Notes under the pieces: model-generated | What the model was told of the DNA's origin: nothing | Database searches by the model: none | What the model saw: only the letters and a program-made list of their open reading frames with translations | Position numbers and translations under genes: made by a program | DNA from: an uncultured Lachnospiraceae bacterium | GTDB taxonomy: Bacteria; Bacillota; Clostridia; Lachnospirales; Lachnospiraceae | Direction of reading: 5' to 3' | Length of the DNA: 64,000 nucleotides | NCBI GenBank assembly: GCA_902781895.1 | Contig: CACZLA010000006.1 | Coordinates: 835-64,834 of the forward strand | Shown: one piece after another, positions 21,661-44,647 of the stretch | Position numbering within the stretch: the stretch's first letter is position 1 | Layout of the letters: each line of letters opens with the position of its first letter

Positions 21661-21762
21661 TATTCTATCTCCCTTTATGTTTTTTAGTTTCACTTTATCG
21701 CAGTAACGATTTAACGTGCTAAAGTGTATTATACAACTATCACTTTTAAAGTCAAGGGAAAA

Positions 21763-23094: not shown

Positions 23095-23119
23095 ACTTTA
23101 TTAAAAGGAAGTATTTCCC

Positions 23120-25558
23120 ATGTTTATTAAGGAATTAATAAGTAGAACTGAAAACTGCGGATCAAAGATCGCTATAGTTGATAAAGACGGCAAGAGAAAG
23201 ACCACATACGATGAGTTATGGAAGATGGCGTTTTCCGTTGCAGGAAAGCTCCGGGATGACGGCTTCAAAAAAGGCGACATTATAATGATCAGTATGCCAA
23301 GAAGTACCGAATACGTTGCAGCCTATCTCGGCATACTCATTAACGGATGTGTTGCCCTTCCCACTGCTATGGATTATTCCGAGCATAAGATTGCTTCCAT
23401 AGTTAACACCTGTGATGTCAAATCCGTTATGACTCTTACCGACGTTACTTCTATACAAAATATTGATTCCCAAACAGCAGCAGCACTGCGTAGTGACAGA
23501 AGCGACTGTGTATGCTCCGGAACAGATCCTGCATTCATTATCTTTACGTCAGGTTCCATCGATGTTCCCAAGGGCATACTTCATGACCAGAACAGCCTGC
23601 AGTCTTCCGTTGACAGAGCAAGTATATGGCAGAATAATCTGGAGGACGTAAGACTTCTCTCCACTGCCCCCTTCCCATTTATTGTATTTACGGGAGAAAT
23701 ACTTGGTATTTTATGGAGAGGTTCTACTGTTTATATCCTTCCTGAGGAAGACAGATTTGACGCAAAAAAGATCATAGAAGCAATCAACCGGTTCAATATA
23801 AATCTTGCTTTTATTTCCCCTCAGATGCTGAAGGTTATTTTCGAGTATAGTATCTCCATTCCTTCAATGAAGAGAATCATTACCGGCTCCGAAAAAGTAT
23901 CTGATTTATATAACCCTGATATAGAAATATGGAATACCTACGGTATGTCGGAAACAGCAGGTCTCACTATTTTCAAGATAGATAAACCATATGAAAATAC
24001 GCCTATCGGAGATCCTATGGGAGATGCAGAAGTTTTTCTTAATAATGGTGAAATCTGTGCCATAGGTTATTTTTCACATGAATATATAGGTCTTACAGAC
24101 GAAGCAAAAAATCGTTTCCAGCTGCTTGAAGACGGCCGTACTCTTATCAGAACAGGGGACCTGGCTTATAACGATGACGCCGGCCATATTATCTTTATGA
24201 ACAGAAGAGACTGGATGGTGAAAATTAACGGACAAAGAGTGGAGCCCGGCGAGGTTTCCTCCACAATGAAGCATCATCCTCTGATAAAGGACGCTGTTGT
24301 AAAGGGCGAAAAAGCCAACGACAACCGTTATATTCTGATTGGATATTATATAAGTGACGGTATCATCCCCAGTGATGACATCAAAGAATTTCTGAGCAAA
24401 ACACTACCTTCATACATGATTCCGACTTACTACAGAAGAATGGTTGAGTTTCCAAAAAACCGTAACGGTAAGCTGGATATGAAGCGTTTTCCGGGTCTTG
24501 TTACACTTAAGACAAGGGATACAGAACCACCCGTTCCTCCTATCTCAGATGATGAAAAGAAGCTTCAGCATATTTTCCATGAGATACTTGATTATCCGGA
24601 AGACGACATAGGTACCAATGCCGATTTCTTCCATATAGGCGGAGATTCCATCCGTGCACTTATGCTTTCGGCAAAAATAGAACAGGAGTTCTCTGTATCC
24701 ATAACACCCATGGATATATTTACAAACCCTACAATAAAATCCCTGGTTCCTCTTATAATGCAGGACGAGGGGGATAACGATATATATGTTTATCATTATG
24801 ATGAAAATCTTCCGGAAATGATATTTGTTCATACCGGTCATGCCGGCGGCGAAGCTTATTCAAATCTTTCAAAGACTCTGAAGGGGCTCTGCTCATTTGT
24901 CTGCGTGGAACCCTATAATATCTTCCATCCGGAAATGATGATCAAAGGAATAGATAATCTGGCTGCCAAATATATAGAAATTATAAAAAAGAAAAACCCT
25001 CATGGTCCATACATCCTCGGTGGCTGGTCCTACGGCGGACTGATAGCTTACGAAATGGCATGTCAGCTGGCTGAGCAGGGTGAAGAAATACAGCATCTGT
25101 TTATTATGGATTCAAATATAATGAACGATGAAGAAAAACATTTATTCAAACAATTCTTTACAGCAGATGAATTTGATGAATATCTGGAAAAGGATCCTTT
25201 ATTCGAACGATTCAGAAGAATGGGAGTTCTGGACAGGGTAAAGATAAACAGCAAGAATGTTCTTAATGATATGCTGTCCTTTGTTCCGAAAAAATATGAT
25301 GGTCCTGTAACATTTTTCAAGGCTATGGAATACAAAATAGGCGAGGATGCTCTGCAGGCAAGTATTCAGCGTAGAGCTGAAGAAATATCAAGAAAAAAAC
25401 CTGCAAACGGTTTTGAAAAAGTAGCATCAAACTTAAAGATCGTTAATATAGACTCCGATCATGACAGCTTCATGCGTAACTATGCACTCTATAAGATATC
25501 ACTTACTATAGAAATGACGATCAACAAAATAATCAAGGATTCAAAAAATGAAGAGTAA
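23120..25558 (+). CDS. Single-module nonribosomal peptide synthetase-like protein: adenylation - thiolation (PCP) - thioesterase
   Basis: A-domain cores FTSGSIDVPKG (A3), NTYGMSETAG (A5), IRTGDLAY (A7), RRDWMVKINGQRVEPGEV (A8) and NGKLDMKRF (A10). The carrier core is FFHIGGDSIRAL. The TE has GWSYGG (GxSxG) and a late DSDHDSF histidine. No condensation domain is present. Confidence 0.85.
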   Translation: MFIKELISRTENCGSKIAIVDKDGKRKTTYDELWKMAFSVAGKLRDDGFKKGDIIMISMPRSTEYVAAYLGILINGCVALPTAMDYSEHKIASIVNTCDVKSVMTLTDVTSIQNIDSQTAAALRSDRSDCVCSGTDPAFIIFTSGSIDVPKGILHDQNSLQSSVDRASIWQNNLEDVRLLSTAPFPFIVFTGEILGILWRGSTVYILPEEDRFDAKKIIEAINRFNINLAFISPQMLKVIFEYSISIPSMKRIITGSEKVSDLYNPDIEIWNTYGMSETAGLTIFKIDKPYENTPIGDPMGDAEVFLNNGEICAIGYFSHEYIGLTDEAKNRFQLLEDGRTLIRTGDLAYNDDAGHIIFMNRRDWMVKINGQRVEPGEVSSTMKHHPLIKDAVVKGEKANDNRYILIGYYISDGIIPSDDIKEFLSKTLPSYMIPTYYRRMVEFPKNRNGKLDMKRFPGLVTLKTRDTEPPVPPISDDEKKLQHIFHEILDYPEDDIGTNADFFHIGGDSIRALMLSAKIEQEFSVSITPMDIFTNPTIKSLVPLIMQDEGDNDIYVYHYDENLPEMIFVHTGHAGGEAYSNLSKTLKGLCSFVCVEPYNIFHPEMMIKGIDNLAAKYIEIIKKKNPHGPYILGGWSYGGLIAYEMACQLAEQGEEIQHLFIMDSNIMNDEEKHLFKQFFTADEFDEYLEKDPLFERFRRMGVLDRVKINSKNVLNDMLSFVPKKYDGPVTFFKAMEYKIGEDALQASIQRRAEEISRKKPANGFEKVASNLKIVNIDSDHDSFMRNYALYKISLTIEMTINKIIKDSKNEE

Positions 25559-27281
25559 CGACAATCTTCTTCGAAAAACATTTTTGCGGTTTTTACTTCC
25601 GCTGATCATACAGTATCTTGCATTTTCACTCAGCGAGTTTACCGACAGCATACTTGTCAGCCAGATGCTTGGAGACAAGGCTATGGCTGCAGTAAACCTT
25701 GCTTCCAGCTTTGTTCTTATCTTCAGTACTGTCTCGATCACTATAGGAACCGGAGGTTCCGCCGAATATACAAAGTTTCTGGGAGAGAAAAATCCCAAAC
25801 TTGCTAATATCACAAAGAACTACTCCACCTGGCTGTTCGTGGTAAGTGGTATAGTTCTTAGTTTGCTTTGCGTTACTGTCTTCCCTCTGATCGTTCCCCT
25901 TATATCAAAGGATCCCGAGATAGTCGATGCAGCTAAGGGATATACCATTTTCCTTGGAGCACTGGCTCTGCCTTATATACTTGTAAACGGTATGTGTGCT
26001 TTTCTTACTGCCGCCGACCATCCGAAATTCGCAGCCCTGCTAACTGTTATTGCAAATGGTATCAACCTGGGAATGGATATATTCTATGTAAAGGTTGTTG
26101 GTTTTGGTGCCGAAGGCACCGCCCTTGCCACTGCCACCGGTTACATCATCGCTCTGGTCATTATGTTTATATACATGAAGAAGAAGGGACTCTGGGGCAT
26201 AAAGAGACCTCCGAAGAGCGAATTAAAGAGTATAAAAAATCAGACACTTATAGGTTTTGCATCCGGTCTGGGCCAGCTGGGCTTCTCCATCAAGGTAACT
26301 GCCGTAAGTGCCATCTCAAGTCTTGTTGCAGGCTCAGTGGGACTGATCACATTTTCCTTTTCATTCCAGACCGTATCCATCATCAGTCTGTTCGGTGCCG
26401 GCATTATCGGAAGTGCAGTTCCCATAGTCTCAGCTCTGTATGGAGAAAAAGACTTTGTGGGAATCAGAAAGGTTACAAACTATGCAATGATGATACTGCT
26501 TGTCTTCCAGGTGGCTACACTTATATTCTTTGAGCTTCAACCGGAGTTCATGGCAAAGATATATAATATAAATAAGGACAATCTTGATTTTGCCATCCAT
26601 GGTTTCCGTATCTTTTCACTTATGAATATACTTCGATTCCCGACTATATTTATGATGTATATATATTCGGCGATCCGAAAGAACAAACTGGCTATAACCA
26701 TCAGTATCATGGACAGTCTTCTGGTCATCCCGATATCATTTATCATGGGAAAGACCATGGGGGCAGACGGAATATGGTGGGCATTCAGTGTTGCTGCATT
26801 TATCCTGTTCCTTTACATTGTCATATATACCATACGCGAAAACAGGAAAAACAAGCACACAACTACAGGTCCTCTCATGCTTCCTGTAGCAGATAAGGAC
26901 AATACTTTATATTTATCAATCCCAAGTTCCAGTGACTCAGCCTCAGAGCTTTCCATGCAGACCACCGATTTTCTTTCTGAACACGGAATAGACAGAAAAA
27001 CTTCAATGAGATGCGGGCTTCTGGCTGAAGAACTTGGAGTATACCTGTTAAATGAATCCGAAAAAATGGAAATGATCGATTTCATCGTAAGAATCTTTAC
27101 GGGACATATAGATATATGTTTCAGAAGTGACGGAGAACCCATCTCCGGTTTTCTCCTTCTCAAGGAAAAGGAAGACAGTATCAGCGAGAGCATACTCTCC
27201 TCTCTTTCCTCCGAATGCAAATATAACAGATATCTGGGTCTGAACAATTCATATATCAGGGTTGATATCCCGGAGGCCTGA
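25548..27281 (+). CDS. MATE family efflux transporter with an extra ~130-aa C-terminal cytoplasmic domain
   Basis: About 440 aa of 12-TM MATE-like sequence, then a soluble tail (from about nt 26880) containing DRKTSMRCGLLAEELGVYLLNES...IVRIF...FRSDGEPISGF. Its start overlaps the NRPS stop by 11 nt. Confidence 0.8.
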   Translation: MKSNDNLLRKTFLRFLLPLIIQYLAFSLSEFTDSILVSQMLGDKAMAAVNLASSFVLIFSTVSITIGTGGSAEYTKFLGEKNPKLANITKNYSTWLFVVSGIVLSLLCVTVFPLIVPLISKDPEIVDAAKGYTIFLGALALPYILVNGMCAFLTAADHPKFAALLTVIANGINLGMDIFYVKVVGFGAEGTALATATGYIIALVIMFIYMKKKGLWGIKRPPKSELKSIKNQTLIGFASGLGQLGFSIKVTAVSAISSLVAGSVGLITFSFSFQTVSIISLFGAGIIGSAVPIVSALYGEKDFVGIRKVTNYAMMILLVFQVATLIFFELQPEFMAKIYNINKDNLDFAIHGFRIFSLMNILRFPTIFMMYIYSAIRKNKLAITISIMDSLLVIPISFIMGKTMGADGIWWAFSVAAFILFLYIVIYTIRENRKNKHTTTGPLMLPVADKDNTLYLSIPSSSDSASELSMQTTDFLSEHGIDRKTSMRCGLLAEELGVYLLNESEKMEMIDFIVRIFTGHIDICFRSDGEPISGFLLLKEKEDSISESILSSLSSECKYNRYLGLNNSYIRVDIPEA

Positions 27282-27320
27282 TTATTATCTACAGCTTATA
27301 AATAATTACCACTATGGTAA

Positions 27321-27349
27321 TAGACATATTATGTAAATAACTTTATAAT
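27321..27349 (+). promoter_or_regulatory. Sigma-A-type promoter (TAGACA - 17 nt - TATAAT) for the wall-binding protein gene
   Basis: Hexamers at 27321-27326 and 27344-27349 with a 17-nt spacer, about 70 nt upstream of the ATG. Confidence 0.5.
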
Positions 27350-27416
27350 GATTTTGTTGGTGACAGATTAGCACCAAAAAGTATATTTTATAAGTATTTA
27401 TGAAGGAGGATGGAAA

Positions 27417-28253
27417 ATGAGATTAAAGAAATTACTCAAGACAGCAGCAGCTACCACTCTTGCAGCAGTCGTATGCCTGGGTGCAGCAAGCGTTGCAAAG
27501 GCAGCAGGCGGTCAGTGGATGGAAAGTGCCAAGGGCTGGTGGTATAAGAACGCAGATGGTTCTTATCAGAAAGACCAGTGGATGCAGGACGGCGGAAAAT
27601 GGTATTACTTCGATGCCGACGGGTATATGGACTGCAACGGCTATCGTCAGGGCTTCTGGTTAAATGCTGACGGATCATATGATTCAAAATACTCAGGTGG
27701 AAAATGGTATCAGAACAACCAGGGCTGGTGGTGGGCTGATAAGTCCGGCTGGTATCCAAAGAACACATGGGTAAGAATAGACGGAAAGTATTATTACTTC
27801 CATAATTCAGGTTACCTTGCAACAGACTCATGGATTGGTGATTATTACGTAGATAAGACAGGTGCATGGGATGCTTCTGTTGTAAAGGACGGTTATTCAG
27901 GAACATATTCTGAAACTATCGCCGGAAGAGGATTTATGAGCATCATCAAGAACGGAAATCAGCACAGAGTTACAGTAACATGGCCTGACTCAGCAGCTAA
28001 GTATTATTACTGGGAGTTCACAGGAACATTTGATTCCAAGGGCGTTATGAGTTATAAGGGCGCTACAAAGACAGTTTATATTTATGACAAAGACGGAAAC
28101 CTTACTGTAGATGAAAAGGGTCATCAGACACCTTATCAGACATATGCTGACGGTACAGGTACTATCAAGATAAACGGCTCAAAGCTTGAGTGGGTTGAAA
28201 AAGACGGAAGCGGAAAGCAGATTCAGAAGAGTAATTTCAACAAAAATAAGTAA
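27417..28253 (+). CDS. Secreted protein with choline-type cell-wall-binding repeats and a C-terminal beta-rich domain
   Basis: The signal peptide ends AASVAKAAGG. CW_binding_1-like repeats (GWWYKNADGSY, GKWYYFDADGYM, GWWWADKSGWY, GKYYYFHNSGYL) are present. The RBS is GAAGGAGG. Confidence 0.8.
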   Translation: MRLKKLLKTAAATTLAAVVCLGAASVAKAAGGQWMESAKGWWYKNADGSYQKDQWMQDGGKWYYFDADGYMDCNGYRQGFWLNADGSYDSKYSGGKWYQNNQGWWWADKSGWYPKNTWVRIDGKYYYFHNSGYLATDSWIGDYYVDKTGAWDASVVKDGYSGTYSETIAGRGFMSIIKNGNQHRVTVTWPDSAAKYYYWEFTGTFDSKGVMSYKGATKTVYIYDKDGNLTVDEKGHQTPYQTYADGTGTIKINGSKLEWVEKDGSGKQIQKSNFNKNK

Positions 28254-28293
28254 TCCTTCTTAATTTGAGTAAACCCGATGGGTGCAAATATAA

Positions 28294-28335
28294 ACGGGAC
28301 ATATCGAAATGATATGTCCCGTGTTTTTTGTTTTG
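28294..28335. terminator. Rho-independent terminator (plus strand; possibly bidirectional with pta)
   Basis: ACGGGACATATC-GAAAT-GATATGTCCCGT is a perfect 12-bp stem followed by GTTTTTTGTTTT. Confidence 0.85.
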
Positions 28336-28366
28336 ATCACCGTGTTCTGTAATTCAGATTCAGATA

Positions 28367-29359
28367 TTACTTAATAGTAGCTGAAGCTGCTGTGATGATG
28401 GACATTGAGTAAACCTCCTGAGCTGTACATCCACGTGACAGATCGTTGATAGGTGAATTAAGACCGAGAAGTATAGGTCCAAATGCTTCAAAATTACCGA
28501 TTCTCTGAGCAAGCTTGTAACCGATGTTACCTGCATTGATGTCAGGGAAGATAAATGTATTTGCATGTCCTGCAACCTCTGAACCCGGAGCCTTCTTTGC
28601 TGCAACGTTCGGTGAAACAGCTGCATCAAACTGAAGCTCTCCATCGATAGGGATATCAGGAAGAAGCTTCTTTGTCTTCTCAGCTGCATTACGCATCTTT
28701 TCTACGCTCTCTCCCTTTCCTGAGCCCTTTGTTGAGTAGCTGAGGAATGCAACCTTCGGATCAACTCCGAAAAGCTTAGCACACTTGATAGTCTCACTTG
28801 CGATCTCAACAAGATCATCTTCTGAAGGATCGATAGTGATAGCACAGTCACCCATAGCCAGAACCTCATTATGTCCTGTTGCACCGGGACGAACAAGGAT
28901 AAAGCATGATGTAACTATATTATTTCCCGGCTTTGTCTTTACAAGCTGGAATGCAGGTCTTACTGTATCAGCTGTTGAATATGAAGCTCCGCCGAGAAGG
29001 CAGTCAGCAATGCCCATCTTTACAAGCATTGTTCCAAAATAGTTATTTGATTTAAGTGTTTCTCTTGCAGTTTCCTCTGTAGCTCCTTTGTTCTTACGGA
29101 TCTCTACAAACTGAGCAACCATCTCATCTATCTTGTCATAGTTAAGAGGATCGATGATATTTGCTCCGCGAATATTGAAACCACTGTCCTCTGCTATAGC
29201 ATGGATCTCATCAGGATTTCCGATAAGGATTGGCTTCAGGAAGTTACTTGCAAGAAGTCTGGATGATGCCTCAAGTATACGAGGATCATTTCCGTCAGGA
29301 AGGACGATCGTTTTCGGATCAGCCTTCAGTCTGTTGATCATTTCTCCAAAATAGTTCAT
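28367..29359 (-). CDS. pta: Phosphate acetyltransferase
   Basis: 330 aa. It is collinear with short-form Pta by my recall: IVLPDGNDPRILEA, YFGTMLV, GGASYSTADTVRPAFQLVKTKPG, LSYSTKGSGKG, FIFPDINAGNIGYKLAQRIGNFEAFGPILLGLNSPINDLSRGC. Confidence 0.9.
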   Translation of the reverse strand: MNYFGEMINRLKADPKTIVLPDGNDPRILEASSRLLASNFLKPILIGNPDEIHAIAEDSGFNIRGANIIDPLNYDKIDEMVAQFVEIRKNKGATEETARETLKSNNYFGTMLVKMGIADCLLGGASYSTADTVRPAFQLVKTKPGNNIVTSCFILVRPGATGHNEVLAMGDCAITIDPSEDDLVEIASETIKCAKLFGVDPKVAFLSYSTKGSGKGESVEKMRNAAEKTKKLLPDIPIDGELQFDAAVSPNVAAKKAPGSEVAGHANTFIFPDINAGNIGYKLAQRIGNFEAFGPILLGLNSPINDLSRGCTAQEVYSMSIITAASATIK

Positions 29360-29462
29360 TTTTACACCTCACTTAAGACTTTTTTTTCGAACATAAATTA
29401 TAGCACACAGAGGGGTTCTTCTCAACACAAAATGTGTCAAGTCAGATACACAAAATATGAAA

Positions 29463-30971
29463 TCAGATAACAGGGAATGGCAGCTGGGATATGATGTCCC
29501 GTTCTCTATCCACTCCGGGATAAACCTCTATCAGCTTCAGTCCTTTATCCGTAAGTTCGAAGACGCAGCGTTCAGTAACATATATAACTCTCTGGCCGTT
29601 CTTAAGTGCACGCTGACCTGAAAAGCTTACACTGCTTACCTCATTAACAAACTTCGGTATGGTTCCTTCCTGCACGATCTTCACTTTTCCGTTTTCCTCT
29701 TCAACGAAAAGTCCCTTTGCCGTGAAGGAAAGACAGAATACAACTACGGGCGTTTTGGATGTGATATTGGCAAAGCCTCCTATACCCGCATAAGCTCCGG
29801 CTCCTCTATGGGCATTTACATTTCCGTGTTTATCAACCTCCAGGCCTCCCATGAAGCATATATCAAGGCCTCCGTTATCATACAGGTCGAACTGGTTCGC
29901 CATATCATAAACCGAAGCCGCTCCGATCATTGCTCCGAATACGGGACCGGAAGCCGGGAAGCCACCTACACCACCTGACTCAACGGTAAGTGTTATCTTA
30001 TTCAGCATTCCGGATTCTTTTGCATATTTTGATACCGTCTCGGGGATACCGATTCCGATATTTACTATATCGTCCTCCTTCAGCTCTTTGGAAGCACGAC
30101 GACCTATGATATCAGCCACCACGCTGTTCTGTCTCTGAGATGATGACAGTCTTTCGATAATCTCTACCCACATATCCCACTGTCCCGGGGGTATTTCAAA
30201 GCTACCGGTAAGTGCCTCATATCCGCTTCCCAGAGGTTCCTGCTCTACCACAACTATGGCATCTACCAGGCATCCGGGAATAATGGCATTACGAGGTCTG
30301 GTGGGTTTACGTACCAGCTTGTCCACCTGAACTATGACCTTACCTCCGTTCGCTTTAGCTGCCTGACATATGGAAAGAGCATCTCCCGACATATACATAT
30401 CGTCAAAGGATATATTTCCCTTTCTGTCAGCGGCAGTTCCTTTTATAAGAGCAACATTTATCTTCGGAAGCTGATAGTACAGGAATTCCTCTCCGTCAAC
30501 CTCAACTATTTTTACAAGAGTTTCATCCCTGGAAATGTTATTGATGCCGGGACCTTCCTTACGGGGATCCACAAAAATATCCAGACCAACCTTCGAAAGT
30601 GCACCGGGGATTCCTCCCGCCTGTGCCCTTATGGCATGTGATATACATCCCAGAGGAAGATTGTATGCTTCAAATCTGTCCTCAAGAACCAGCTTCTTTG
30701 TACTGAGCATAGCCCCGAAATGTCCGCATATCAGCTTCTTTACGGCACCCTCTCTTATATAACTCTCGGCATTACGATTCTCATCCCAGAGTCCGAAGCC
30801 CGCACTTGAAAGCAGGGTAAGTTCGGAGGGGGAGCCGGTATTTTTATATCTTTCATATATAGCCTCGTGAAGCTCCACCGGATTCTCTATACCCACGAAT
30901 GAATTGACACAGACACAGTCTCCATCATTTATCAGCTCCACCGCCTCAGACGGTGTCATTATCTTATACAT
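29463..30971 (-). CDS. Family-I acyl-CoA:carboxylate CoA-transferase, fused alpha/beta type (propionate CoA-transferase Pct/YdiF-like)
   Basis: 502 aa with an N-terminal LINDGDCVCVNSFVG, TVESGGVGG (catalytic Glu context), GGLDICFMGGLEVDKHGNVN and YVTERCVF, as in Pct-type enzymes. Confidence 0.8.
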   Translation of the reverse strand: MYKIMTPSEAVELINDGDCVCVNSFVGIENPVELHEAIYERYKNTGSPSELTLLSSAGFGLWDENRNAESYIREGAVKKLICGHFGAMLSTKKLVLEDRFEAYNLPLGCISHAIRAQAGGIPGALSKVGLDIFVDPRKEGPGINNISRDETLVKIVEVDGEEFLYYQLPKINVALIKGTAADRKGNISFDDMYMSGDALSICQAAKANGGKVIVQVDKLVRKPTRPRNAIIPGCLVDAIVVVEQEPLGSGYEALTGSFEIPPGQWDMWVEIIERLSSSQRQNSVVADIIGRRASKELKEDDIVNIGIGIPETVSKYAKESGMLNKITLTVESGGVGGFPASGPVFGAMIGAASVYDMANQFDLYDNGGLDICFMGGLEVDKHGNVNAHRGAGAYAGIGGFANITSKTPVVVFCLSFTAKGLFVEEENGKVKIVQEGTIPKFVNEVSSVSFSGQRALKNGQRVIYVTERCVFELTDKGLKLIEVYPGVDRERDIISQLPFPVI

Positions 30972-30986
30972 TTATATTCCTCTCTA

Positions 30987-32093
30987 TCACTGTTTTTTGT
31001 TGACTATCTTGAATCTTGCAACTCCTCTTTCTTTGCTAGGAAGCTTTACCAGTATTCTGTTCAGGATATTATCTACAAGCACGTCATTTCCTCTCTCAAA
31101 TGGATTTCCCACGCTCATTATTGATGAATAATCAATCTCCAATCCCATCTCACTGCCTTCACTACCTGCACTTAGACGAACAATGACATCACCCTCTTCG
31201 GCATATTCCAGGGATGGGATCAGCATAGACGTTACTATCTCTTCAACAGCCAGCTGACAATTCATGATAGTCTTCCTGTCCATAAACTGATTCCTGCAGA
31301 ATTCATCCAGCTCACCCATCAGGGCAAATACATCCATGTTGTCATTATTCAGGACATATTCAAAATCACGGATACTGTATAAAAATCTCCTTGTTCGTTC
31401 ATCCTTCGGATTATCAAATATCTGACTTGAAGGACAGTCCTCTATGATTCCTTCTTTATCGAGATACAGCACTCTTTTTGATACATACTTGACCAGCCGC
31501 ATCTCGTGAGTGACCATTATCATCGTAACTCCGGTTCCGGCAACATTTCTCATAACCGACAGAACCTCGGAAACCATAGTAGGATCAAGTGCATTGGTAG
31601 GCTCATCAAAAAGAATTATCTTCGGATGCATGGCAAGTACTCTTGCTATGGCCACACGCTGCTTTTGTCCTCCCGTAAGATCCTCGGGATAGCTGCGTTC
31701 CTTTGATTCCAGTCCCACCAGCTTCAGCTGCTTCATCGCCTCATCATAAGCCTCCCTGGGGGATTTCTTCAGCAGATCCATCTGGGGCATCATTATATTT
31801 TCAACTACGGTCTTATGACCGAAAAGATTGAAGTATTGAAATATCATTCCCATTTTCATTCGAACAGACTGAAGGTCGGCCTTCGGATCACATACATCCA
31901 CCCCGTCTATAATGACAGAGCCGGAGGTTGGTTCTTCAAGCCTGTTAAGGCATCTGAGCAGTGTGGACTTGCCGACACCCGGCGGTCCTATAATGCTGAC
32001 TATCTCGCCCTCTTCAATATCCACACTTATATCCTTCAGGGGAGTGATATCACCGTAGCTTTTACAAAGATTTTTGATCTCTATAAGGCTCAT
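30987..32093 (-). CDS. Polar amino-acid ABC transporter ATP-binding protein with an extra ~120-aa C-terminal domain
   Basis: Walker A GPPGVGKST, signature LTGGQKQR and Walker B ILFDEPTNALD, ending near aa 245. A tail (nt 30990-31361) follows with DRKTIMNCQLAVEEIVTSMLIPS...VIVRLSAG...LEIDYSS. Confidence 0.85.
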   Translation of the reverse strand: MSLIEIKNLCKSYGDITPLKDISVDIEEGEIVSIIGPPGVGKSTLLRCLNRLEEPTSGSVIIDGVDVCDPKADLQSVRMKMGMIFQYFNLFGHKTVVENIMMPQMDLLKKSPREAYDEAMKQLKLVGLESKERSYPEDLTGGQKQRVAIARVLAMHPKIILFDEPTNALDPTMVSEVLSVMRNVAGTGVTMIMVTHEMRLVKYVSKRVLYLDKEGIIEDCPSSQIFDNPKDERTRRFLYSIRDFEYVLNNDNMDVFALMGELDEFCRNQFMDRKTIMNCQLAVEEIVTSMLIPSLEYAEEGDVIVRLSAGSEGSEMGLEIDYSSIMSVGNPFERGNDVLVDNILNRILVKLPSKERGVARFKIVNKKQ

Positions 32094-32795
32094 TTAGTCC
32101 ACCCCCTTTACCAGTGCTTTTTTTCGTTTATTTTTAAAGGCTTTGTCAGCCAGTCCGAGAAGCATCTTCATGCCCTTCGTGAGCAGATAATAGATGACAG
32201 CGGCAATAATTATGGGCACCAGTGCCGCCGTACCCTGGCTACGCACCTGATCTGCTGCTTTTGTCAGATCAACCACGGTAATAAATCCGACTACACTGGT
32301 TTCCTTCAGAAGGCTGATAATCTGTGCTTTATAAGCAGGATAAAATATAACTGCCGCCTGAGGAAATACAACCTTGAAGAAGGCTTTTCTCTCACTATAT
32401 CCAAAAGCTATAGCCGCTTCTCTCTGACCCTTATCTACCTTTTTAGTTCCATTCCACATAAGCTTATAGCATCTGGCACTGAATATGACAGTAAATCCGA
32501 TGATCGCCACTAAAACAGCCGGAAGATAAACCCTGCCTAACAATGCATAATACAGAAGCATAAGTATCACAACCACCGGCACTCCGGTTATGATATCACT
32601 GTATACGAATATCACGCCGTTGAGTATCTTTATATTTCTCCGCCTTATAAACAAAACTAAAAGACCGAGAAGAGAACCCAGCACTCCTGCTATAACTGTA
32701 ATAAGAACAGTTATCCCCAGTCCGCTGAGGAGACTTTTATATCCATCCCCGGTAATAAATGTCTTTTCAAATCCGATCATAAAATCATTAAACAT
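32094..32795 (-). CDS. Polar amino-acid ABC transporter permease (HisM/GlnP-type)
   Basis: 233 aa, 5-TM type with the EAA loop REAAIAFGYSERKAFFKVVFPQA. Its stop abuts the ATPase start. The RBS is AAAGGAGA. Confidence 0.85.
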   Translation of the reverse strand: MFNDFMIGFEKTFITGDGYKSLLSGLGITVLITVIAGVLGSLLGLLVLFIRRRNIKILNGVIFVYSDIITGVPVVVILMLLYYALLGRVYLPAVLVAIIGFTVIFSARCYKLMWNGTKKVDKGQREAAIAFGYSERKAFFKVVFPQAAVIFYPAYKAQIISLLKETSVVGFITVVDLTKAADQVRSQGTAALVPIIIAAVIYYLLTKGMKMLLGLADKAFKNKRKKALVKGVD

Positions 32796-32912
32796 CTGTT
32801 ACATCTCCTTTATTAGCACATTGTTTATTTTATTATTATGAGCCTAATAAAGCAAATTGTTTTTATACCTAAAAAACGTGGTAAAATATAGCCAAAATGA
32901 CTAAAGGTATTT

Positions 32913-32941
32913 TTGACACTCACTGCAGAGTATGGTATTAT
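32913..32941 (+). promoter_or_regulatory. Strong sigma-A-type promoter (TTGACA - 17 nt - TATTAT, with TGG extended -10)
   Basis: Hexamers at 32913-32918 and 32936-32941. It is followed in the leader by the hairpin/palindrome TGTCAAAAG-TCC-CTTTTGACA at 32971-32991. Confidence 0.6.
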
Positions 32942-33043
32942 ATTTTATGGATGTAATAACACGATGTAAGTGTCAAAAGTCCCTTTTGACATCGTATAAC
33001 ATAAGTTTAAAAATCCACATAAAAAGGGGAGGTTTTTTGCAAT

Positions 33044-33373
33044 ATGGAGAAAGAAAATCGCTACACAGTATATGAGGATGATACCTGGTCAATAGAGCTT
33101 CGTCCGCGAAACAATTTCCACGAGGGTGAGCCCACCATGAAAGTATGGGTTTCAATGATGGGACAGGAAGTAGCCCAGTATTCAAATAAGTTCCGTGGAT
33201 ATGGCCATTATAAAAATAATGAGGAGCTGCTCGATCCTTCTGTTGCCGAAGCTGCAAAAAAGACATGGGAAAAGCTTAAAGAAGGCGATTTAACAGACGA
33301 ATTATTGGAGGCTATAAAGACAGAGGTTGCTGACATAATAAAAGCCGCACCTGCTGAGGAGCCTGCAGAGTAA
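33044..33373 (+). CDS. Hypothetical small acidic protein
   Basis: 109-aa ORF with a GGGGAGG RBS and a terminator downstream. I recognise no family. Confidence 0.55.
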   Translation: MEKENRYTVYEDDTWSIELRPRNNFHEGEPTMKVWVSMMGQEVAQYSNKFRGYGHYKNNEELLDPSVAEAAKKTWEKLKEGDLTDELLEAIKTEVADIIKAAPAEEPAE

Positions 33374-33384
33374 TAAGTTTAGAA

Positions 33385-33415
33385 GGGGTTACGGATTTAC
33401 CGTAACCTCTTTTAA
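33385..33415 (+). terminator. Rho-independent terminator
   Basis: GGTTACGG-ATTTA-CCGTAACC followed by TCTTTTAATAATT. Confidence 0.65.
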
Positions 33416-33447
33416 TAATTCTAGTACACATTAAGGAATCACATTTT

Positions 33448-35037
33448 ATGAGTAATTCAAACACTCTTGAAGTGACTGTAGATTACAAAGGAATAGATAC
33501 CATTTCGGAGTTTATCAGTAACTGGATGACCGAATGTAAAACGGACAAGTATGAACTTATCCGAACAAGGCTCACAGTTGAGGAGCTTCTTCTTAGTGTT
33601 AATGCTCATTACGAAAAGGAAGTCTCGGCCACCGTTTACACCGGAACAAAGTTCGGAAAAAGATACTGCAGGATAGTATATGATGGCGAAAGCTTCGATC
33701 CCTTTGCAAAGGATGAAAATCTGGACGAATGGACAGAGCATCTTATTTCAAGTTCTGAAACAGTTCCGTCATGGAGCTTTTCCGGCGGAAAAAATGAATT
33801 ATATTTTACTCTCTCAAAAAGAGTTATAAAAACAGAATCCTTACTTGTGGGTTCCGTGATCCTCGCCATCCTTTTCGGACTCATAAAAGTTGATTATTCC
33901 GGTGATGTTATAGACTTCGCATCAGAAAATATCCTTACTCCTTTATCTGATGTATTTATAAATCTACTGAACACATTTGCGGTTCTTCTTATATTTTTCT
34001 CCGTACTCAGCGGCATCTGTGGTCTCGGTGGTGCGAGAGATTTCAGTAAGATGGGTAAAACCATCATCAATCGTTTTCTGATACGCAGTGCTTTCTTCAT
34101 AGCAATGAGTATAGGAATACTCTATCTCATATACAGACTTCCCTACGGAGAAACACAGGGTAGCTCTCAATCCGATGAACTGATAAAAAGAATATTTGCA
34201 ATAATCCCCTCAGATCCGTTATCTCCCTTCATAAATGGCGACATGCTTCAGATAGTTTTCATGGCCATTATTATAGGGATTGTTATTCTTGCAAATAAAC
34301 ACAGGCTGCGTCATACCACAAGTCTGCTTATTGAGCTGAATGATATAAGCACACGTACAGTGGAACTGGTATGTAAGCTGCTTCCGCTCTATATCTTTGT
34401 TACCCTTACTCTTCTTTTCTGGCAGAATGGAATGGGTATATTCTTCAGGATATGGAAGCCTCTTCTTATATATACATCGATATCATTTTTCATTGTGATT
34501 TTATCGATGCTGATAGTTTCCATTAAGTTTAAGGTTAGTCTCAAGGTTCTCGCAAAAAAAATCAGACCAACATTTATCATTGGTCTGACTACTGCGTCAT
34601 CAACTGTGGCATTCAGTAAGGTTCTTGATACAAACGAACGAAAACTGGGAATATCCCCGGATGTTTCAAAATTCGGTGTTCCCATCGGCAATCTGCTCTG
34701 CAGTGCCACAACCGGAGCATCTATGGCTTCCATAGTTTTCTATCTCACCGACTACTATGGCCTTTCCATTAATGTCGGCTGGTTTATAATGCTCTGGCTC
34801 ATGTGCTTCATTTTCGCCATATCACTTCCTCCTGTTTCCGGAGCACTGCTGATATGTCTCGGAATTATCATGAAAAACTTTAACATTCCATCTGAAGGAC
34901 TTGCCATTGCCGGAACCATGGGACTGATATTCGACTTTATAGATACATCAAGTCGTATCGTCATATCACACATGGAGCTCTGTCTGTCGGCAGATAAGCT
35001 GGGAAAGCTGAACAAAGAGAAGCTGAGAAAACCGTGA
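33448..35037 (+). CDS. Dicarboxylate/amino-acid:cation symporter (DAACS/GltP-type) with an extra ~125-aa N-terminal cytoplasmic domain
   Basis: The C-terminal ~400 aa is polytopic with SDF-family features (ASSTVAFS, GVPIGNLLCSATTGASMA, SLPPVSGALL). The N-terminal soluble part (33448-33822) contains DKYELIRTRLTVEELLLSVNAHYEKE...RYCRIVYDGESFDPF. Confidence 0.8.
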   Translation: MSNSNTLEVTVDYKGIDTISEFISNWMTECKTDKYELIRTRLTVEELLLSVNAHYEKEVSATVYTGTKFGKRYCRIVYDGESFDPFAKDENLDEWTEHLISSSETVPSWSFSGGKNELYFTLSKRVIKTESLLVGSVILAILFGLIKVDYSGDVIDFASENILTPLSDVFINLLNTFAVLLIFFSVLSGICGLGGARDFSKMGKTIINRFLIRSAFFIAMSIGILYLIYRLPYGETQGSSQSDELIKRIFAIIPSDPLSPFINGDMLQIVFMAIIIGIVILANKHRLRHTTSLLIELNDISTRTVELVCKLLPLYIFVTLTLLFWQNGMGIFFRIWKPLLIYTSISFFIVILSMLIVSIKFKVSLKVLAKKIRPTFIIGLTTASSTVAFSKVLDTNERKLGISPDVSKFGVPIGNLLCSATTGASMASIVFYLTDYYGLSINVGWFIMLWLMCFIFAISLPPVSGALLICLGIIMKNFNIPSEGLAIAGTMGLIFDFIDTSSRIVISHMELCLSADKLGKLNKEKLRKP

Positions 35038-35069: not shown

Positions 35070-35795
35070 CTAGAATTCTGTAACCACCAGAGAGCCGTCC
35101 ATACCGCTCTGACTTATCGAGAATCTTTTTTCATTTCCGGATGGATCTATGTAAGAATATCCGAAGGTAGGAAGATCACCTGCAAATACCATATCAACAC
35201 AAAGAGGATGTGCTGAGTTCAGGGTATCCCGTACATATAATTCCTCTATATCGAAGCTTGGAGTTCCGTCATCGGCAACATCCGTCATGCTGAGACTGAG
35301 CAGCTTAAAGTTCGTAACCTCACCCTGTACTTCAAACAGAAGAGATGTTACTGCGTCCGACGAATCGGCAACGGATACCGACTCTATATCATCCTTACTG
35401 TACTGTGAATCACTCAGATACTTAACAGTAACAGTGGCTTCTTCAGACTTAAGATCTGACTGAGTATCAGAGGTAACCGGAGTTTCTTCCCTGCCGTCTT
35501 CCATCTCTTCCACAGAATCCATTGTTACATCCTTGTCTGAGTCTTTATCCTTCGATGATTTTTTTGCCTGTTTCTTTGCCTCTTTTTCATCAACCTTTTC
35601 TTCCGCCACTGCAGTTGCCGACGCATTACTACCTTCGGCTTCTTCTACTGCCGACTGATTCGCAGCCATTTCGGCGGTGGTCATTTCCTTAGCCCCCTTA
35701 GATGTATGCGTGCTCTTAGAAGAACTATCGTCTCCACATGCCACCATAGATAACATCATAACTGATATCAGAATTATTCCAACAAATTTCTTCAT
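35070..35795 (-). CDS. Lipoprotein with a low-complexity acidic linker
   Basis: The signal peptide with lipobox is LSMVAC|GDD. The middle is E/K/S-rich. The ATGA overlap with the tenA stop suggests co-translation with the thiamine genes. Confidence 0.7.
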   Translation of the reverse strand: MKKFVGIILISVMMLSMVACGDDSSSKSTHTSKGAKEMTTAEMAANQSAVEEAEGSNASATAVAEEKVDEKEAKKQAKKSSKDKDSDKDVTMDSVEEMEDGREETPVTSDTQSDLKSEEATVTVKYLSDSQYSKDDIESVSVADSSDAVTSLLFEVQGEVTNFKLLSLSMTDVADDGTPSFDIEELYVRDTLNSAHPLCVDMVFAGDLPTFGYSYIDPSGNEKRFSISQSGMDGSLVVTEF

Positions 35796-36454
35796 AGATC
35801 GTCCTCCTCAACCATATCCCAGAATCTGTTTTCAAAAACGGCACACTCCTTAAAAATACGGCAGAGCCTCTCTGTCTCTTCGGGACTTATTCCCTCAGTT
35901 TCCTTGTCTACCATATCTATCCACATCTGATTTGCCTCATTATACTCATCACAGGCATATGCTTCAAACCAGCTTTTGTACGGTGAATGTTCTATCTCCT
36001 TCGGATAACGGCTGACCATGCTGCGGGCTATATATGCATATACCCAGGAGCAGTGAAGCAGAGCCGTAAGTCCGGGAATAACCCCTTCGGTTTCCACCAG
36101 CTTTCTGAGATAATCAACATACTCCGAATTCTCAGGAGTCCTCTCAGTACATCGAAGCTCCTGCCCGGTTATCCCGAGACGGTTCATATTCGGAATATGA
36201 ACCTTTTCAAGTTCCCCTCTTGTAGTCTCTATGATTTCTTCCAGAAAGTCTTTTAGTTCTTTTCCTTCAGCTATTTCCAGTATCTTCTCAAGTATTTCAA
36301 TATAATCATTTATATAGAAATAATCCTGAAGCATGTATTTACGGTATTTCCTCTCATGCAAAGTACCGTTTGCCATTTCCATGACAAACGGTTTCTTTGT
36401 TGATTCTTCCCACATATCTATAGTTGTTTCATATAGTTTATCGGACAGCTTCAT
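35792..36454 (-). CDS. tenA: TenA-family aminopyrimidine aminohydrolase (thiaminase II)
   Basis: 220 aa with KPFVMEMANGTL...YMLQDYFY and C-terminal ...FENRFWDM, the TenA/PqqC-like pattern. It lies in a thiamine gene context. Confidence 0.85.
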   Translation of the reverse strand: MKLSDKLYETTIDMWEESTKKPFVMEMANGTLHERKYRKYMLQDYFYINDYIEILEKILEIAEGKELKDFLEEIIETTRGELEKVHIPNMNRLGITGQELRCTERTPENSEYVDYLRKLVETEGVIPGLTALLHCSWVYAYIARSMVSRYPKEIEHSPYKSWFEAYACDEYNEANQMWIDMVDKETEGISPEETERLCRIFKECAVFENRFWDMVEEDDL

Positions 36455-36463
36455 ACTTAATTC

Positions 36464-37168
36464 CTATTTCTGAGCTATGATGGCAACATATCCGCCGCTC
36501 TTATAGCCCTCGACTACTTCCTCAGGCTCTTCATTTGTATACATAGGATTCTTTACAAGAGTCTGGTAAAACTTGAAATCAGTTATACCCAGGGACTTAA
36601 GCACATCGATCTTCTCCTCTGTAGAATGCCATACTCCCGAAGAAGCAAGCTCTATAGGATAAGGAAGCATTGGCATGGTACCCTCAAGATACTCATGATC
36701 ATAGGTTCCGAGACTCTTGCCCAGAAGATACATAAATCCAAATGCACTCTCCTTCGGCACGTCAAGAAGTATCAGCTTTCCGTCAGCCTTAAGCGCCTTC
36801 AGACTCTTTTCATAAACCGGATAAAGATCCTCCATATAGCTAGAGCTTCCGTTGAAATAAATGATATCATAGGTATTCTCCGGAAGGTCCACATCTTCTA
36901 TAATACCATACTTGATAACATTTACACCACGTTTTTCGGCTATAGCTCCCATATCCCTGGAGGGCTCTATACCCTCTACTCCCGAGCAGTCAATATAGCT
37001 TTCAAAAAGTCCGCTTCCGCATCCTACGGAAAGAAGCTTCTTTCCTTCATAATCACCCAGCACCTTCTTGAAAAGTCTCAGCTCGCTGGTGAAAAGATTA
37101 TCGTTTTCCATAAACCACTCATCATACTGGTTTGCATAGCCATCAAATTTCTGTTTTTCGTTACTCAT
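36464..37168 (-). CDS. Class I SAM-dependent methyltransferase
   Basis: Motif I is LLSVGCGSGLFE, followed by the post-I acidic residue and LKADGKLILLD (motif II/III). Confidence 0.75.
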   Translation of the reverse strand: MSNEKQKFDGYANQYDEWFMENDNLFTSELRLFKKVLGDYEGKKLLSVGCGSGLFESYIDCSGVEGIEPSRDMGAIAEKRGVNVIKYGIIEDVDLPENTYDIIYFNGSSSYMEDLYPVYEKSLKALKADGKLILLDVPKESAFGFMYLLGKSLGTYDHEYLEGTMPMLPYPIELASSGVWHSTEEKIDVLKSLGITDFKFYQTLVKNPMYTNEEPEEVVEGYKSGGYVAIIAQK

Positions 37169-37195
37169 TTTTTCTCCATTTCTTTTATAATAATT

Positions 37196-37244
37196 AAGAT
37201 TCTTCGCTCAGAATGACATCTTGTTGCTTCGCTCAGAATGACAT
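37196..37244. repeat. Two direct copies (25-bp register) of CTTCGCTCAGAATGACAT preceded by AAGATT; same short repeat family as at 55935-56045
   Basis: Copies at 37202-37219 and 37227-37244, immediately 3' of the thiD stop. The string TAAGATTCTTCGCT...GCTCAGAATGACAT recurs at 55964-55994. Confidence 0.8.
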
Positions 37245-37245
37245 A

Positions 37246-38028
37246 TTACATTATCTTGTAAGCGTGGTTCATGGGGCCGCTGCCCTTTCCCAGATCCAGC
37301 ATAGCTGCAAGAGCGCCTGATATATAATCCTTTGCATTTTTTACGGATGTATCCAGGTCATTCCCCTTTGCAAGATTTGATGCGATAGCACTTGACAAGG
37401 TGCAGCCTGTTCCATGTGTATTCGGGTTATCTATACGGCGTCCTTTAAACCATACAAAGTCCCCGTCACGATAGAGCAGGTCATTTGCATCATTTATCTG
37501 ATGTCCTCCCTTACAGAGAACAGCGCAGCCAAAGGCTTCATAGATTGCCTTTGCGGCAGCGATCATATCCTCCTCCGACTTTATTTCAAGACCGGACAGA
37601 ACCTCTGCCTCCGGAATGTTCGGAGTTATAACCGTAGCTATGGGAAGGAGACGCTTTTTAAGTGTTTCTATCGCATCATCACTTATCAGCTTTGCTCCGC
37701 TGGTTGCTACCATTACAGGATCCACCACGATGTTTTTTGCATCGTACTCCTTCAGTTTGTCGGAGATTACTTCAATAAGCTCAGTGGATGATACCATACC
37801 GGTTTTAACCGCATCAGGAAAGATATCCGTAAAGATTGCATCTATCTGATCCGATAAAAAATCCGGCGTAACCTCCATAATATTTGTTACGCCGGTTGTG
37901 TTCTGGGCGGTAAGAGCCGTAACTGCACTCATGGCATAAACTCCATTTGCAGTCATGGTCTTGATATCCGCCTGGATACCGGCGCCTCCGCTGGAATCAC
38001 TTCCTGCGATCGTTAAGCATGTGTTCAT
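37246..38028 (-). CDS. thiD: Hydroxymethylpyrimidine / phosphomethylpyrimidine kinase
   Basis: 260 aa with LTIAGSDSSGGAGIQADIKT, VKTGM, VVDPVMVATSG and NTHGTGCTLSSAIA, the full ThiD motif set. Confidence 0.93.
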   Translation of the reverse strand: MNTCLTIAGSDSSGGAGIQADIKTMTANGVYAMSAVTALTAQNTTGVTNIMEVTPDFLSDQIDAIFTDIFPDAVKTGMVSSTELIEVISDKLKEYDAKNIVVDPVMVATSGAKLISDDAIETLKKRLLPIATVITPNIPEAEVLSGLEIKSEEDMIAAAKAIYEAFGCAVLCKGGHQINDANDLLYRDGDFVWFKGRRIDNPNTHGTGCTLSSAIASNLAKGNDLDTSVKNAKDYISGALAAMLDLGKGSGPMNHAYKIM

Positions 38029-38190
38029 AGCATTACCCTCTTTCTTAGTTTTTATTTACTATAATTTGCTTATTTTTTATAGCGATCCAAGGTGGTGCCC
38101 CCGGTGGACCGCTTATTTTGTTTTCTATACGCTGCGGTTTCATCCGCATGCTTTCAGGTGTCAGTTCAGAGTGTCAGTTTAGCATTCAGT

Positions 38191-38901
38191 TCAGACTTTG
38201 AAATCATCTATACGGTTCAGAAATATGTCCGCAGTATTTTTCAGACCTTCCACATCACTCTCACCGTATTCATCATATACACCAACTGTTATATACCCTG
38301 CATCCTTTGCAGTTTTAAGTGCATAGAGTGAATCCTCAAATACAAGGGTTTCCTCGGGAGAGGTGTTCATGTACTGAGCCGCCATATTATAAATCTTCGG
38401 TGAGTGCTTACTTTCTCCAACCTCTGAGTTGGTAAATATCCTGTCGATATATTCAAGAAGTCCGTTTCTTTCCAGAGCCCTTTCAATCTGCTGTCTCGGG
38501 CTGGAGGTTGCAGCAGTGACAGGAAGATTATTTGAACTGAAATATGTCACCAGCTCCCGGGCTCCCGGTTTTAAATCCACCTCATGGAAATAAAAATCCT
38601 CAAGCATACCTCTTATTCCTTCCAGCAGTTCCTCCCGGGTTCTGTCCGGAACATAATGCTCTCTCAGATAGTCAGCTCCCTGTTCCATACTCATGGAAAA
38701 CAGGATTTTATTTAAGCCCTCTTCCGGCTGGATACCATTTTTTATGAGATATCTTGCTCCCAGATCATTCCATATCTTCATGGAATCCAGAAGCACTCCG
38801 TCTATATCAAAGATAACTCCGCTGATTTTTTTACCCTTTATTTCCATACTCACTGATCCACCATTTTCCGTTTCAGCATTCACAGCTTCAACATTCATCA
38901 T
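38191..38901 (-). CDS. HAD-superfamily hydrolase (beta-phosphoglucomutase-like subfamily IA)
   Basis: FDIDGVLLDS (motif I DxD), TAATSS (motif II) and FEDSLYALKTAKDAG (motif IV). The true start may be the internal ATG at 38847 (MEIKGKK...). Confidence 0.8.
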   Translation of the reverse strand: MMNVEAVNAETENGGSVSMEIKGKKISGVIFDIDGVLLDSMKIWNDLGARYLIKNGIQPEEGLNKILFSMSMEQGADYLREHYVPDRTREELLEGIRGMLEDFYFHEVDLKPGARELVTYFSSNNLPVTAATSSPRQQIERALERNGLLEYIDRIFTNSEVGESKHSPKIYNMAAQYMNTSPEETLVFEDSLYALKTAKDAGYITVGVYDEYGESDVEGLKNTADIFLNRIDDFKV

Positions 38902-44461: not shown

Positions 44462-44647
44462 AAGCCCCCTCCATATACATATAGTAATTTTAACAAGAAT
44501 ATATAAATCTATCAATCATAAAAAGCTTTTTATATGCTATGAAAAGCCCCTTTTTTCTTTAATAAACAGCTGTGCTGTCTTGAATAAACATTTGAATTAT
44601 GATAAATTACGGAATAGTTGAGTAAAATTTAGATTCGAGGGATCGAC

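Follow-up and report, generated by a model that had tools for sequence, protein, structure and literature searches.

Three transporter genes of different superfamilies, each carrying an additional domain with the ancestry of the SpoIIAB/RsbW class of GHKL serine kinases (Pfam HATPase_c_2), have been found within 9.5 kb in a 64,000-nucleotide stretch of DNA from an uncultured Lachnospiraceae bacterium (assembly GCA_902781895.1, contig CACZLA010000006.1, positions 835 to 64,834 of the forward strand; hereafter the window). The genes code for a MATE-family transporter, an ABC transporter ATPase and a symporter of the DAACS (sodium:dicarboxylate symporter) family. The three domains have a degenerate ATP site, and they probably constitute a non-enzymatic regulatory pseudokinase module of the transporters. 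In comparison with a preliminary description of this DNA, which was made from the letters alone, the present analysis is firmer on homology and fold and less firm on mechanism.

To our knowledge, only a handful of domains (TOBE, ACT/NIL, CBS, RCK, STAS and EIIA targets) are known to exert post-translational control on bacterial transporters. The fold described here is a known one, but a large unannotated pseudokinase subfamily and its architectures are new: an anti-sigma-kinase fold that has lost its ATP site was taken up repeatedly by three transporter superfamilies with no relation to each other. The subfamily comprises over 1,600 sequence clusters, for the most part from Clostridia of the rumen and gut; the domain is unannotated in current family libraries, and its carriers go only by the names 'symporter' and 'ABC ATP-binding protein'. 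Should the domain prove to be a regulatory module, it would open a new class of transporter regulators and be a clear case of a GHKL pseudokinase in bacteria. It would also connect, in a way that can be tested, the components of partner switching with nutrient transport in bacteria of importance for the fermentation of fibre. The joint profile of the three domain types (A4) provides an immediate practical means to annotate such extensions.

Homologous extensions on three transporters

The window was analysed by open reading frame listing and by Pfam and NCBIfam scans. Both the reading frames and the peptide strings quoted in the preliminary description were recovered where it had placed them, which confirms its observation that transporters of three different superfamilies carry an extra domain. 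The MATE gene (25548-27281, + strand) encodes 577 amino acids, with a MatE core over approximately residues 1-430 (Pfam MatE at residues 18-430, E 1.3e-28; NCBIfam MATE models), a basic linker of about 20 residues and a C-terminal GHKL-like (degenerate HATPase_c_2) domain at 26880-27278, the core of which covers approximately residues 460-573 (26925-27266). The ABC ATPase gene (30987-32093, - strand) is of the GlnQ/polar amino acid type and encodes 368 amino acids. Residues 1-242 (31368-32093) form its ABC_tran nucleotide-binding domain (PF00005, E 1.1e-36; NCBIfam GlnQ model at residues 3-240), which ends at about residue 242 and is joined without a linker to the C-terminal GHKL-like domain (residues 243-368; 30990-31367). 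The DAACS gene (33448-35037, + strand) encodes 529 amino acids, with an N-terminal GHKL-like domain (residues 1-126; 33448-33825) that ends about six residues ahead of the first transmembrane helix of the membrane core (33826-35037; Pfam SDF, PF00375, residues 134-501, E 1.1e-48). In each transporter, about 120-130 residues are outside every Pfam and NCBIfam model at cut-off. MATE proteins have 12 transmembrane helices and both termini inside, the N-terminus of DAACS proteins is also inside and ABC nucleotide-binding domains are soluble. By these established topologies, all three extensions are cytoplasmic.

The extensions are weakly related in pairwise BLAST, with E 1e-5 for MATE against ABC, E 0.2 for MATE against DAACS and no alignment for ABC against DAACS. 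Because of this weakness, family alignments were built with 68 DAACS N-terminal sequences (DAACS-N, alignment A2) and 65 ABC C-terminal sequences (ABC-C, alignment A3), in addition to the joint profile A4 of all three types. The comparison of both families with hhalign gave a probability of 93.7% (E 2e-7, 93 columns). Hidden Markov models (HMMs) were searched against all six-frame open reading frames of at least 60 amino acids in the window: the DAACS-N model recovered the MATE tail (E 1.7e-8, HMM positions 18-122, nearly full length) and the ABC tail (E 3.7e-4), the ABC-C model recovered the MATE tail (E 9.3e-5), and no further reading frame of this set, and hence no fourth copy of the domain, was above inclusion. 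The MATE tail reached 64 bits against the joint profile. A joint MAFFT alignment of the domains was collinear from the first strand through the last, with one Glu as the sole invariant column.

These sequence profiles show that the three extensions are homologous to one another, as had been proposed from their likeness, and they were decisive where the pairwise comparisons were weak. The opposite explanation, a chance or compositional likeness among three unrelated extensions, could appeal to the two BLAST pairs out of three that are weak or null, but it has practically no probability left. It is effectively refuted by the profile-profile probability, by HMM cross-matches shared with no other reading frame of the window, by the full-length collinearity of the joint alignment and by the fact that two independently modelled domains find the same PDB family with Foldseek.

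Structure models were made for the ABC-C and DAACS-N domains with AlphaFold2 and the family alignments, with predicted local distance difference test (pLDDT) scores of 93.9 and 84.6 and predicted template-modelling (pTM) scores of 0.87 and 0.78, respectively. Both models consist of a strand, a helix, a long helix, two strands, a short helix or loop, a helix and two strands. When compared to the PDB with Foldseek, ranks 1-21 of the ABC-C model were occupied by UsfX, RsbW, SpoIIAB, the RsbW domain of Rv1364c and SiaB (template-modelling score 0.5-0.69), and ranks 1-20 of the DAACS-N model by SpoIIAB, UsfX, RsbW and the RsbW domain of Rv1364c (E down to 7.6e-7, template-modelling score up to 0.72). 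The Foldseek probability was 1.00 for nearly all top matches, with a range of 0.69-1.00 for the ABC-C model. Since the top matches of the models were exclusively anti-sigma kinases, the SpoIIAB/RsbW (HATPase_c_2) fold suggested in the preliminary description was right, and the domain is predicted to adopt a GHKL (Bergerat) fold with SpoIIAB topology.

Sequence searches of the PDB with both domain profiles yielded only noise (malic enzyme and UCH-L3, E > 0.3), so the link to SpoIIAB and RsbW needed structure prediction. Sub-threshold matches to PF13581 were obtained for 25 of the 65 ABC-C and 21 of the 68 DAACS-N members (best E 1.1e-4), and no Pfam family besides HATPase_c_2 recurred in more than seven members. 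In hhalign, each domain family aligned at E 1.7-3.2e-5 with a four-sequence SpoIIAB/RsbW reference, whose SpoIIAB and RsbW sequences were checked against PDB chains. The window domains therefore resemble SpoIIAB, RsbW and UsfX (PF13581) in the alpha-beta sandwich, in the order of its elements (strand, two helices, two strands, helix, two strands), in best structural matches with template-modelling scores of 0.5-0.72, in the recurrent weak PF13581 signal and in the conserved N-box Glu described below. They differ from these proteins in being fused to transporters and not free-standing, in the loss of ATP-site motifs and in having no adjacent STAS, PP2C or sigma factor genes in the window.

Degeneration of the ATP site

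The ATP-site motifs were compared with those of SpoIIAB and RsbW by MAFFT and profile alignments, and degeneracy was counted in 126 aligned members (68 DAACS-N and 58 ABC-C) plus the MATE tail. In the column of the N-box Asn, which corresponds to N50 of SpoIIAB (Mg-ATP), the window copies have Tyr (MATE), Ser (DAACS) and Ser (ABC), and Asn was found in 14 of 68 DAACS and 8 of 58 ABC relatives. The N-box Glu is kept in all 58 ABC members. In the DAACS family the G1 box 'DxGxG' is changed to Y-x-G-E-x-F-(N/D)-P, with the Asp replaced by Tyr in 50 of the 68 members and only the first Gly kept; the G1 box of the ABC family is variable, and the window copies have no G1 Asp. The columns of the ATP lid and the G2 box (GxGxxG) are gaps in 68/68 DAACS-N members, in 58/58 ABC-C members and in the MATE tail, and in the models merely about 14-16 residues connect strand 3 to the next helix. 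With respect to PF13581, the window ABC tail scored 12.4 bits (E 0.17) and did not reach the gathering score of 27.4 bits; the window MATE tail and DAACS N-domain gave no match at E <= 1-10. The four features tested for functional HATPase_c_2 kinases (Pfam score, N-box Asn, G1, and G2 with lid) are thus all lacking. The pattern 'ExxxxxxNAxxH ... DxGxxF' of the symporter, previously taken as an N-box/G1 layout, turned out to be out of register, as the profile places Ser50 and not Asn52 on the N-box Asn. The 'NAxxH' string was discarded as an N-box, being two residues off register and not conserved.

Lacking the N-box Asn, the G2 box and the ATP lid, the window domains are not competent kinases. 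On this motif evidence they are pseudokinase versions of the SpoIIAB/RsbW fold, and phosphorylation by the domain has presumably been lost altogether. An active ATP-binding kinase or ATPase domain, phosphorylating the transporter or a partner or else sensing ATP, might be defended by the retained N-box Glu, by the minority of members that keep the Asn and by canonical-looking tails on Butyrivibrio MATE proteins. Such an activity is very improbable, with Tyr, Ser and Ser at the Mg-binding Asn position and the G1 Asp gone in the window copies, a G2 glycine loop or lid in 0/126 aligned members, and the Pfam cut-off reached by none of the window copies or scanned family members.

Polar residues lining the former nucleotide pocket are conserved, namely a Glu pair (E284/E285 of the full-length ABC protein, E45/E46 of the DAACS protein) and, in the ABC family (A3), D12 and E69; they fit a binding site better than a role in packing. 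The 126-residue ABC domain has also two nearly invariant Cys residues, C24 in helix 1 and C37 in helix 2; the second one is common to the MATE tail and the DAACS domain has neither. A redox or metal role of these Cys residues in the ABC-type domain is conceivable.

Distribution of the domain and its possible role

About 68 DAACS homologues of 520-570 amino acids span the N-terminal extension, and they come from Butyrivibrio, Ruminococcaceae, Clostridiales, Acidaminococcaceae and many metagenome-only sequences. At least 120 ABC homologues (362-436 amino acids) were found in sources such as Eubacterium, Oscillospiraceae and Flexilinea, all those listed having the C-terminal domain, with query cover of 85-100%, mostly 99%. 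Fusions of these types are conserved in numerous Clostridia. A census carried out with the A4 profile among 1.84 billion representatives yielded 1,648 clusters (50% identity) at E <= 1e-3 and 682 at E <= 1e-10. The best 150 of the 1,648 clusters were nearly all of the DAACS type, 102 of them with the SDF core and the remainder mostly truncated genes.

A protein identical to the window MATE was present on five metagenome contigs. A search for close relatives in GTDB genomes and JGI metagenomes produced only distant core matches and one spurious 24-residue match. Nothing was returned by a word-indexed homologue search with the MATE tail alone, due to the index and to the divergence of the tail, since the protein itself is in the collection. 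A conserved MATE fusion was found next to a DAACS homologue in the neighbourhood survey. In Butyrivibrio sp. AE2032 (L013:8001-11369) the DAACS and MATE-HATPase_c_2 genes are adjacent and convergent, and the tail of this MATE protein (569 amino acids) passes PF13581 (29.9 bits, cut-off 27.4) and keeps the N-box Asn, His-Gly and a G2-like 'SGFG'. In Butyrivibrio sp. FC2001 (L019:10001-17743) an 8-kb region contains two tandem N-domain DAACS genes, an SBP_bac_3 gene and a gene for a 604-residue MATE-HATPase_c_2 protein. Domain-bearing transporters are therefore clustered in three genomes: three in 9.5 kb in the window, two adjacent in AE2032 and three in 8 kb in FC2001.

The Butyrivibrio MATE-HATPase_c_2 proteins (for example WP_034445349.1) have the architecture of the window MATE and their genes adjoin N-domain DAACS genes. 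Unlike the window protein, their tails pass the Pfam cut-off and keep the N-box Asn and His-Gly, their MATE core is just about 21% identical to it, and they are known from automatic annotation only. The tails of the transporters form a gradient from near-canonical to fully degenerate. A member of the AE2032 cluster is automatically named in IMG 'Na+-driven multidrug efflux pump/anti-sigma regulatory factor (Ser/Thr protein kinase)', and in NCBI merely 'MATE family efflux transporter'. Apart from this IMG name for the canonical MATE version, full-text searches of the literature brought up no account of transporters with RsbW/HATPase_c_2-like domains, in agreement with the earlier impression that they were undescribed; one candidate paper (PMC8939145) proved to be unrelated.

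Additional architectures were found among DAACS relatives. In P0359 (757 amino acids) and P0338, a module of seven transmembrane helices (7TM) like that at the N-terminus of histidine kinases comes ahead of the GHKL-like domain and the SDF core; the two proteins share 35% identity over 380 amino acids, P0338 matches Pfam HisKA_7TM (31.8 bits), and P0376 has three transmembrane helices followed by the domain and SDF. The odd numbers of transmembrane helices in P0338, P0359 and P0376 imply that the domain stays cytoplasmic. The position of the domain between a 7TM sensor and a transporter suggests a signal relay. Two other sequences were set aside. P0296 (498 amino acids), in which the domain and a DAACS-like first transmembrane helix precede a SpoIIE PP2C and a true HATPase_c_2 domain (66.9 bits), had been considered as a physical link to partner-switching enzymes. 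Its junction lies inside the PP2C motif 'PAKEVGGDFYD', and the phosphatase is short of some 40 residues which intact PP2C neighbours have ahead of the motif. The supposed fusion may therefore have arisen as a chimera in assembly. P0356, with the domain and half a sugar permease, looks chimeric in the same way.

The reading considered most probable is that the ATP-site-degenerate domain is a regulatory module bolted directly onto the transporter, without linker on the ABC nucleotide-binding domain and six residues ahead of the first transmembrane helix of the symporter. Through it, a signal from the cytoplasm would set the activity of the transporter, the signal being a protein partner or a small ligand that occupies the remodelled pocket; we lean towards a ligand or allosteric sensor as the input. 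On the ABC ATPase, the domain might restrain or release closure of the nucleotide-binding domains, as do the C-terminal regulatory domains of MalK, MetN and OpuAA. The regulatory domain of MalK, the C2/NIL domain of MetN, the TOBE domain of ModC and the CBS domains of OpuAA mediate trans-inhibition or signal input in importers, where they govern closure of the nucleotide-binding domains according to cytoplasmic effectors. The window ABC ATPase resembles them in having a soluble domain directly C-terminal of a type-I importer nucleotide-binding domain, linkerless and conserved in all 120 listed homologues; it differs in that the fold is GHKL instead of TOBE, ACT-like/NIL or CBS, and in that this domain type is found on secondary transporters too. 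The clustering of domain-bearing transporters of different classes suggests one shared input, and as the same module is present on a clustered exporter, ABC importer and symporter, one signal probably tunes several transport routes.

Several points weigh against this regulatory module. The role is deduced from analogy and architecture, and the loss of ATP binding from motifs, while the retained N-box Glu leaves room for residual chemistry or nucleotide contact. The fusion of the window's own MATE was found only in near-identical metagenome contigs, and the best 150 of the 1,648 clusters, being nearly all DAACS, leave the full range of fusion partners unseen. Moreover, two of the carriers differ in oligomeric state from SpoIIAB and RsbW, which act as constitutive dimers: DAACS proteins form trimers and MATE proteins are monomeric, so a common structural mechanism is not obvious. 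The mechanics may differ between carriers, as a dimer suits the pair of ABC nucleotide-binding domains but neither the DAACS trimer nor the MATE monomer.

The same oligomeric states bear on a purely structural add-on, that is, an oligomerisation, folding or membrane-targeting module without signal input. Such a module would be compatible with the lost catalytic motifs, with the lack of partner genes conserved nearby and with the dimeric state of SpoIIAB and RsbW, because the ABC nucleotide-binding domain pair could use a dimer clamp, as is established for MalK and MetN. This clamp is unsuited to the other two carriers, which have conserved the domain as well; the invariant Glu pair with D12 and E69 of the ABC family argues for a binding site, and the 7TM-sensor-domain-DAACS architectures for a signal relay. 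A structural add-on is consequently regarded as unlikely, and the regulatory pseudokinase module is preferred.

Partner switching and neighbouring genes

The preliminary description had proposed that a partner-switching-like module gates the transporters directly and had counted two stand-alone STAS genes in the window. The count holds in part. The 48-residue reading frame at 63253-63399 is the C-terminal half of a genuine STAS domain (Pfam E 1.7e-6) and a pseudogene remnant, as its upstream frame is closed by stop codons. The 94-residue reading frame at 57320-57604 gave a full-length STAS match below cut-off (E 0.018); it lies between a HisKA/HATPase_c histidine kinase gene (56057-57289) and an OmpR-type response regulator gene (57636-58298), and a STAS protein would not normally be expected in this slot of a two-component operon. 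Both are 22-30 kb from the three transporter genes. Nearly all large open reading frames of the window were annotated with Pfam, and among them no PP2C/SpoIIE phosphatase, sigma factor or canonical RsbW/SpoIIAB was detected.

Nine homologous loci (six DAACS and three ABC) were surveyed over 7-10 kb per side. A STAS gene was found near one of them and PP2C genes near two, with neither in the remaining seven. At L021 a STAS-sigma-GGDEF-2xPP2C cluster is convergent to the DAACS homologue, and in FC2001 (L019) a SpoIIE gene lies 2.3 kb beyond the transporter cluster. PP2C genes are probably abundant in these bacteria, and for this reason STAS or PP2C genes near a few loci are not regarded as enrichment. 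In SpoIIAB:SpoIIAA structures, Arg20 and the ATP lid of SpoIIAB are the STAS contacts. The Arg20 column is occupied in the domain families by Ser/Thr or Met/Leu, in addition to the deletion of the lid.

Partner switching in its receiver form, in which the domain would bind a free STAS protein phosphorylated elsewhere and so open or close the transporter, draws on the fold itself, which is that of STAS-binding anti-sigma kinases, and on the capacity that a pseudokinase could retain to bind a partner. It also draws on the near-canonical motifs of the Butyrivibrio MATE tails, which might still be kinases, on the gene clusters at L021 and FC2001, on the STAS-like reading frames of the window and on the established fusion of STAS to SulP transporters. 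The data on the window and on most loci point in the other direction. The window has no PP2C, sigma factor or competent kinase; of its STAS-like reading frames, the nearest is at a distance of 22 kb, falls below the cut-off and belongs to a two-component operon, and the other one is a remnant. At eight of the nine loci there is no STAS gene within 7-10 kb. The changed Arg20 column and the deleted lid affect both contacts with SpoIIAA, and occasional proximity of PP2C genes is to be expected from their probable abundance. The proposal of a partner-switching module is thus weakly supported, and a STAS-binding receiver is quite unlikely in our estimation.

Other systems with RsbW-type domains differ in the same respect. 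SiaB/SiaC, BtrW/BtrV and SypE/SypA have RsbW-type domains with a non-sigma output, SiaB being among the Foldseek matches, but they co-encode an active kinase, its STAS substrate and a PP2C, none of which is evident in the window. The STAS domain is reportedly fused to SulP/SLC26 anion transporters. That arrangement is alike in placing the fold of a partner-switching component permanently on the cytoplasmic end of a transporter, and unlike in that the fold here is that of the kinase (anti-sigma) and not of the antagonist (STAS), and the carriers are MATE, ABC and DAACS proteins. As a speculative extension to which we give only a small chance, the domains could be the receiver of an undescribed control system in which exporter, ABC importer and symporter are gated directly and coordinately, at the level of the proteins, by one diffusible cytoplasmic signal. 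This signal would be either a protein of the STAS type or a second messenger of nucleotide nature that occupies the remodelled GHKL pocket. Some members would then be 7TM-fed 'transceptor' symporters, and the whole would mirror the arrangement of STAS on SulP.

Binding of cyclic di-GMP to a GHKL domain has a precedent in CckA. Three proteins of cyclic di-GMP turnover are encoded in the window, an EAL protein (4371-6305), a GGDEF-EAL protein of 1303 amino acids (40604-44515) and an SBP_bac_3-GGDEF protein (50164-52455).

The start of the MATE gene (25548) overlaps the stop of a gene encoding an adenylation-peptidyl carrier protein-thioesterase protein (23120-25558), which is preceded by an ATP-grasp ligase gene (21724-23094). 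The region 21724-27281 looks like a small operon for non-ribosomal amide or peptide biosynthesis with its own exporter, and this arrangement is repeated on four further metagenome contigs.

The ABC operon (28367-32888) has the order permease, ATPase with the extra domain, CoA-transferase (29463-30971) and phosphate acetyl/butyryl-transferase (28367-29359). The permease gene (32094-32795, - strand; Pfam BPD_transp_1) shows similarity to its homologues that reaches upstream to approximately nucleotide 32888, and the substrate-binding part is missing. ABC ATPase homologues elsewhere follow a fused SBP_bac_3-permease of 491-511 amino acids. In a tblastn search of the 64 kb with one of these fused homologues for a substrate-binding protein gene of the ABC system, the permease half alone was matched, and no such gene was found in the window.

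Two apparently non-coding tandem-repeat arrays, at 58796-58961 (17 bp x 9.8 copies, 94% match) and 59689-60391 (73 bp x 9.6 copies, 92% match), yield spurious repetitive open reading frames on the + strand. Directly downstream of the symporter region, a thiamine salvage/biosynthesis cluster (35792-40351) includes genes for TenA, a methyltransferase, ThiD (Phos_pyr_kin), an HAD hydrolase, ThiE (TMP-TENI) and ThiM (HK).

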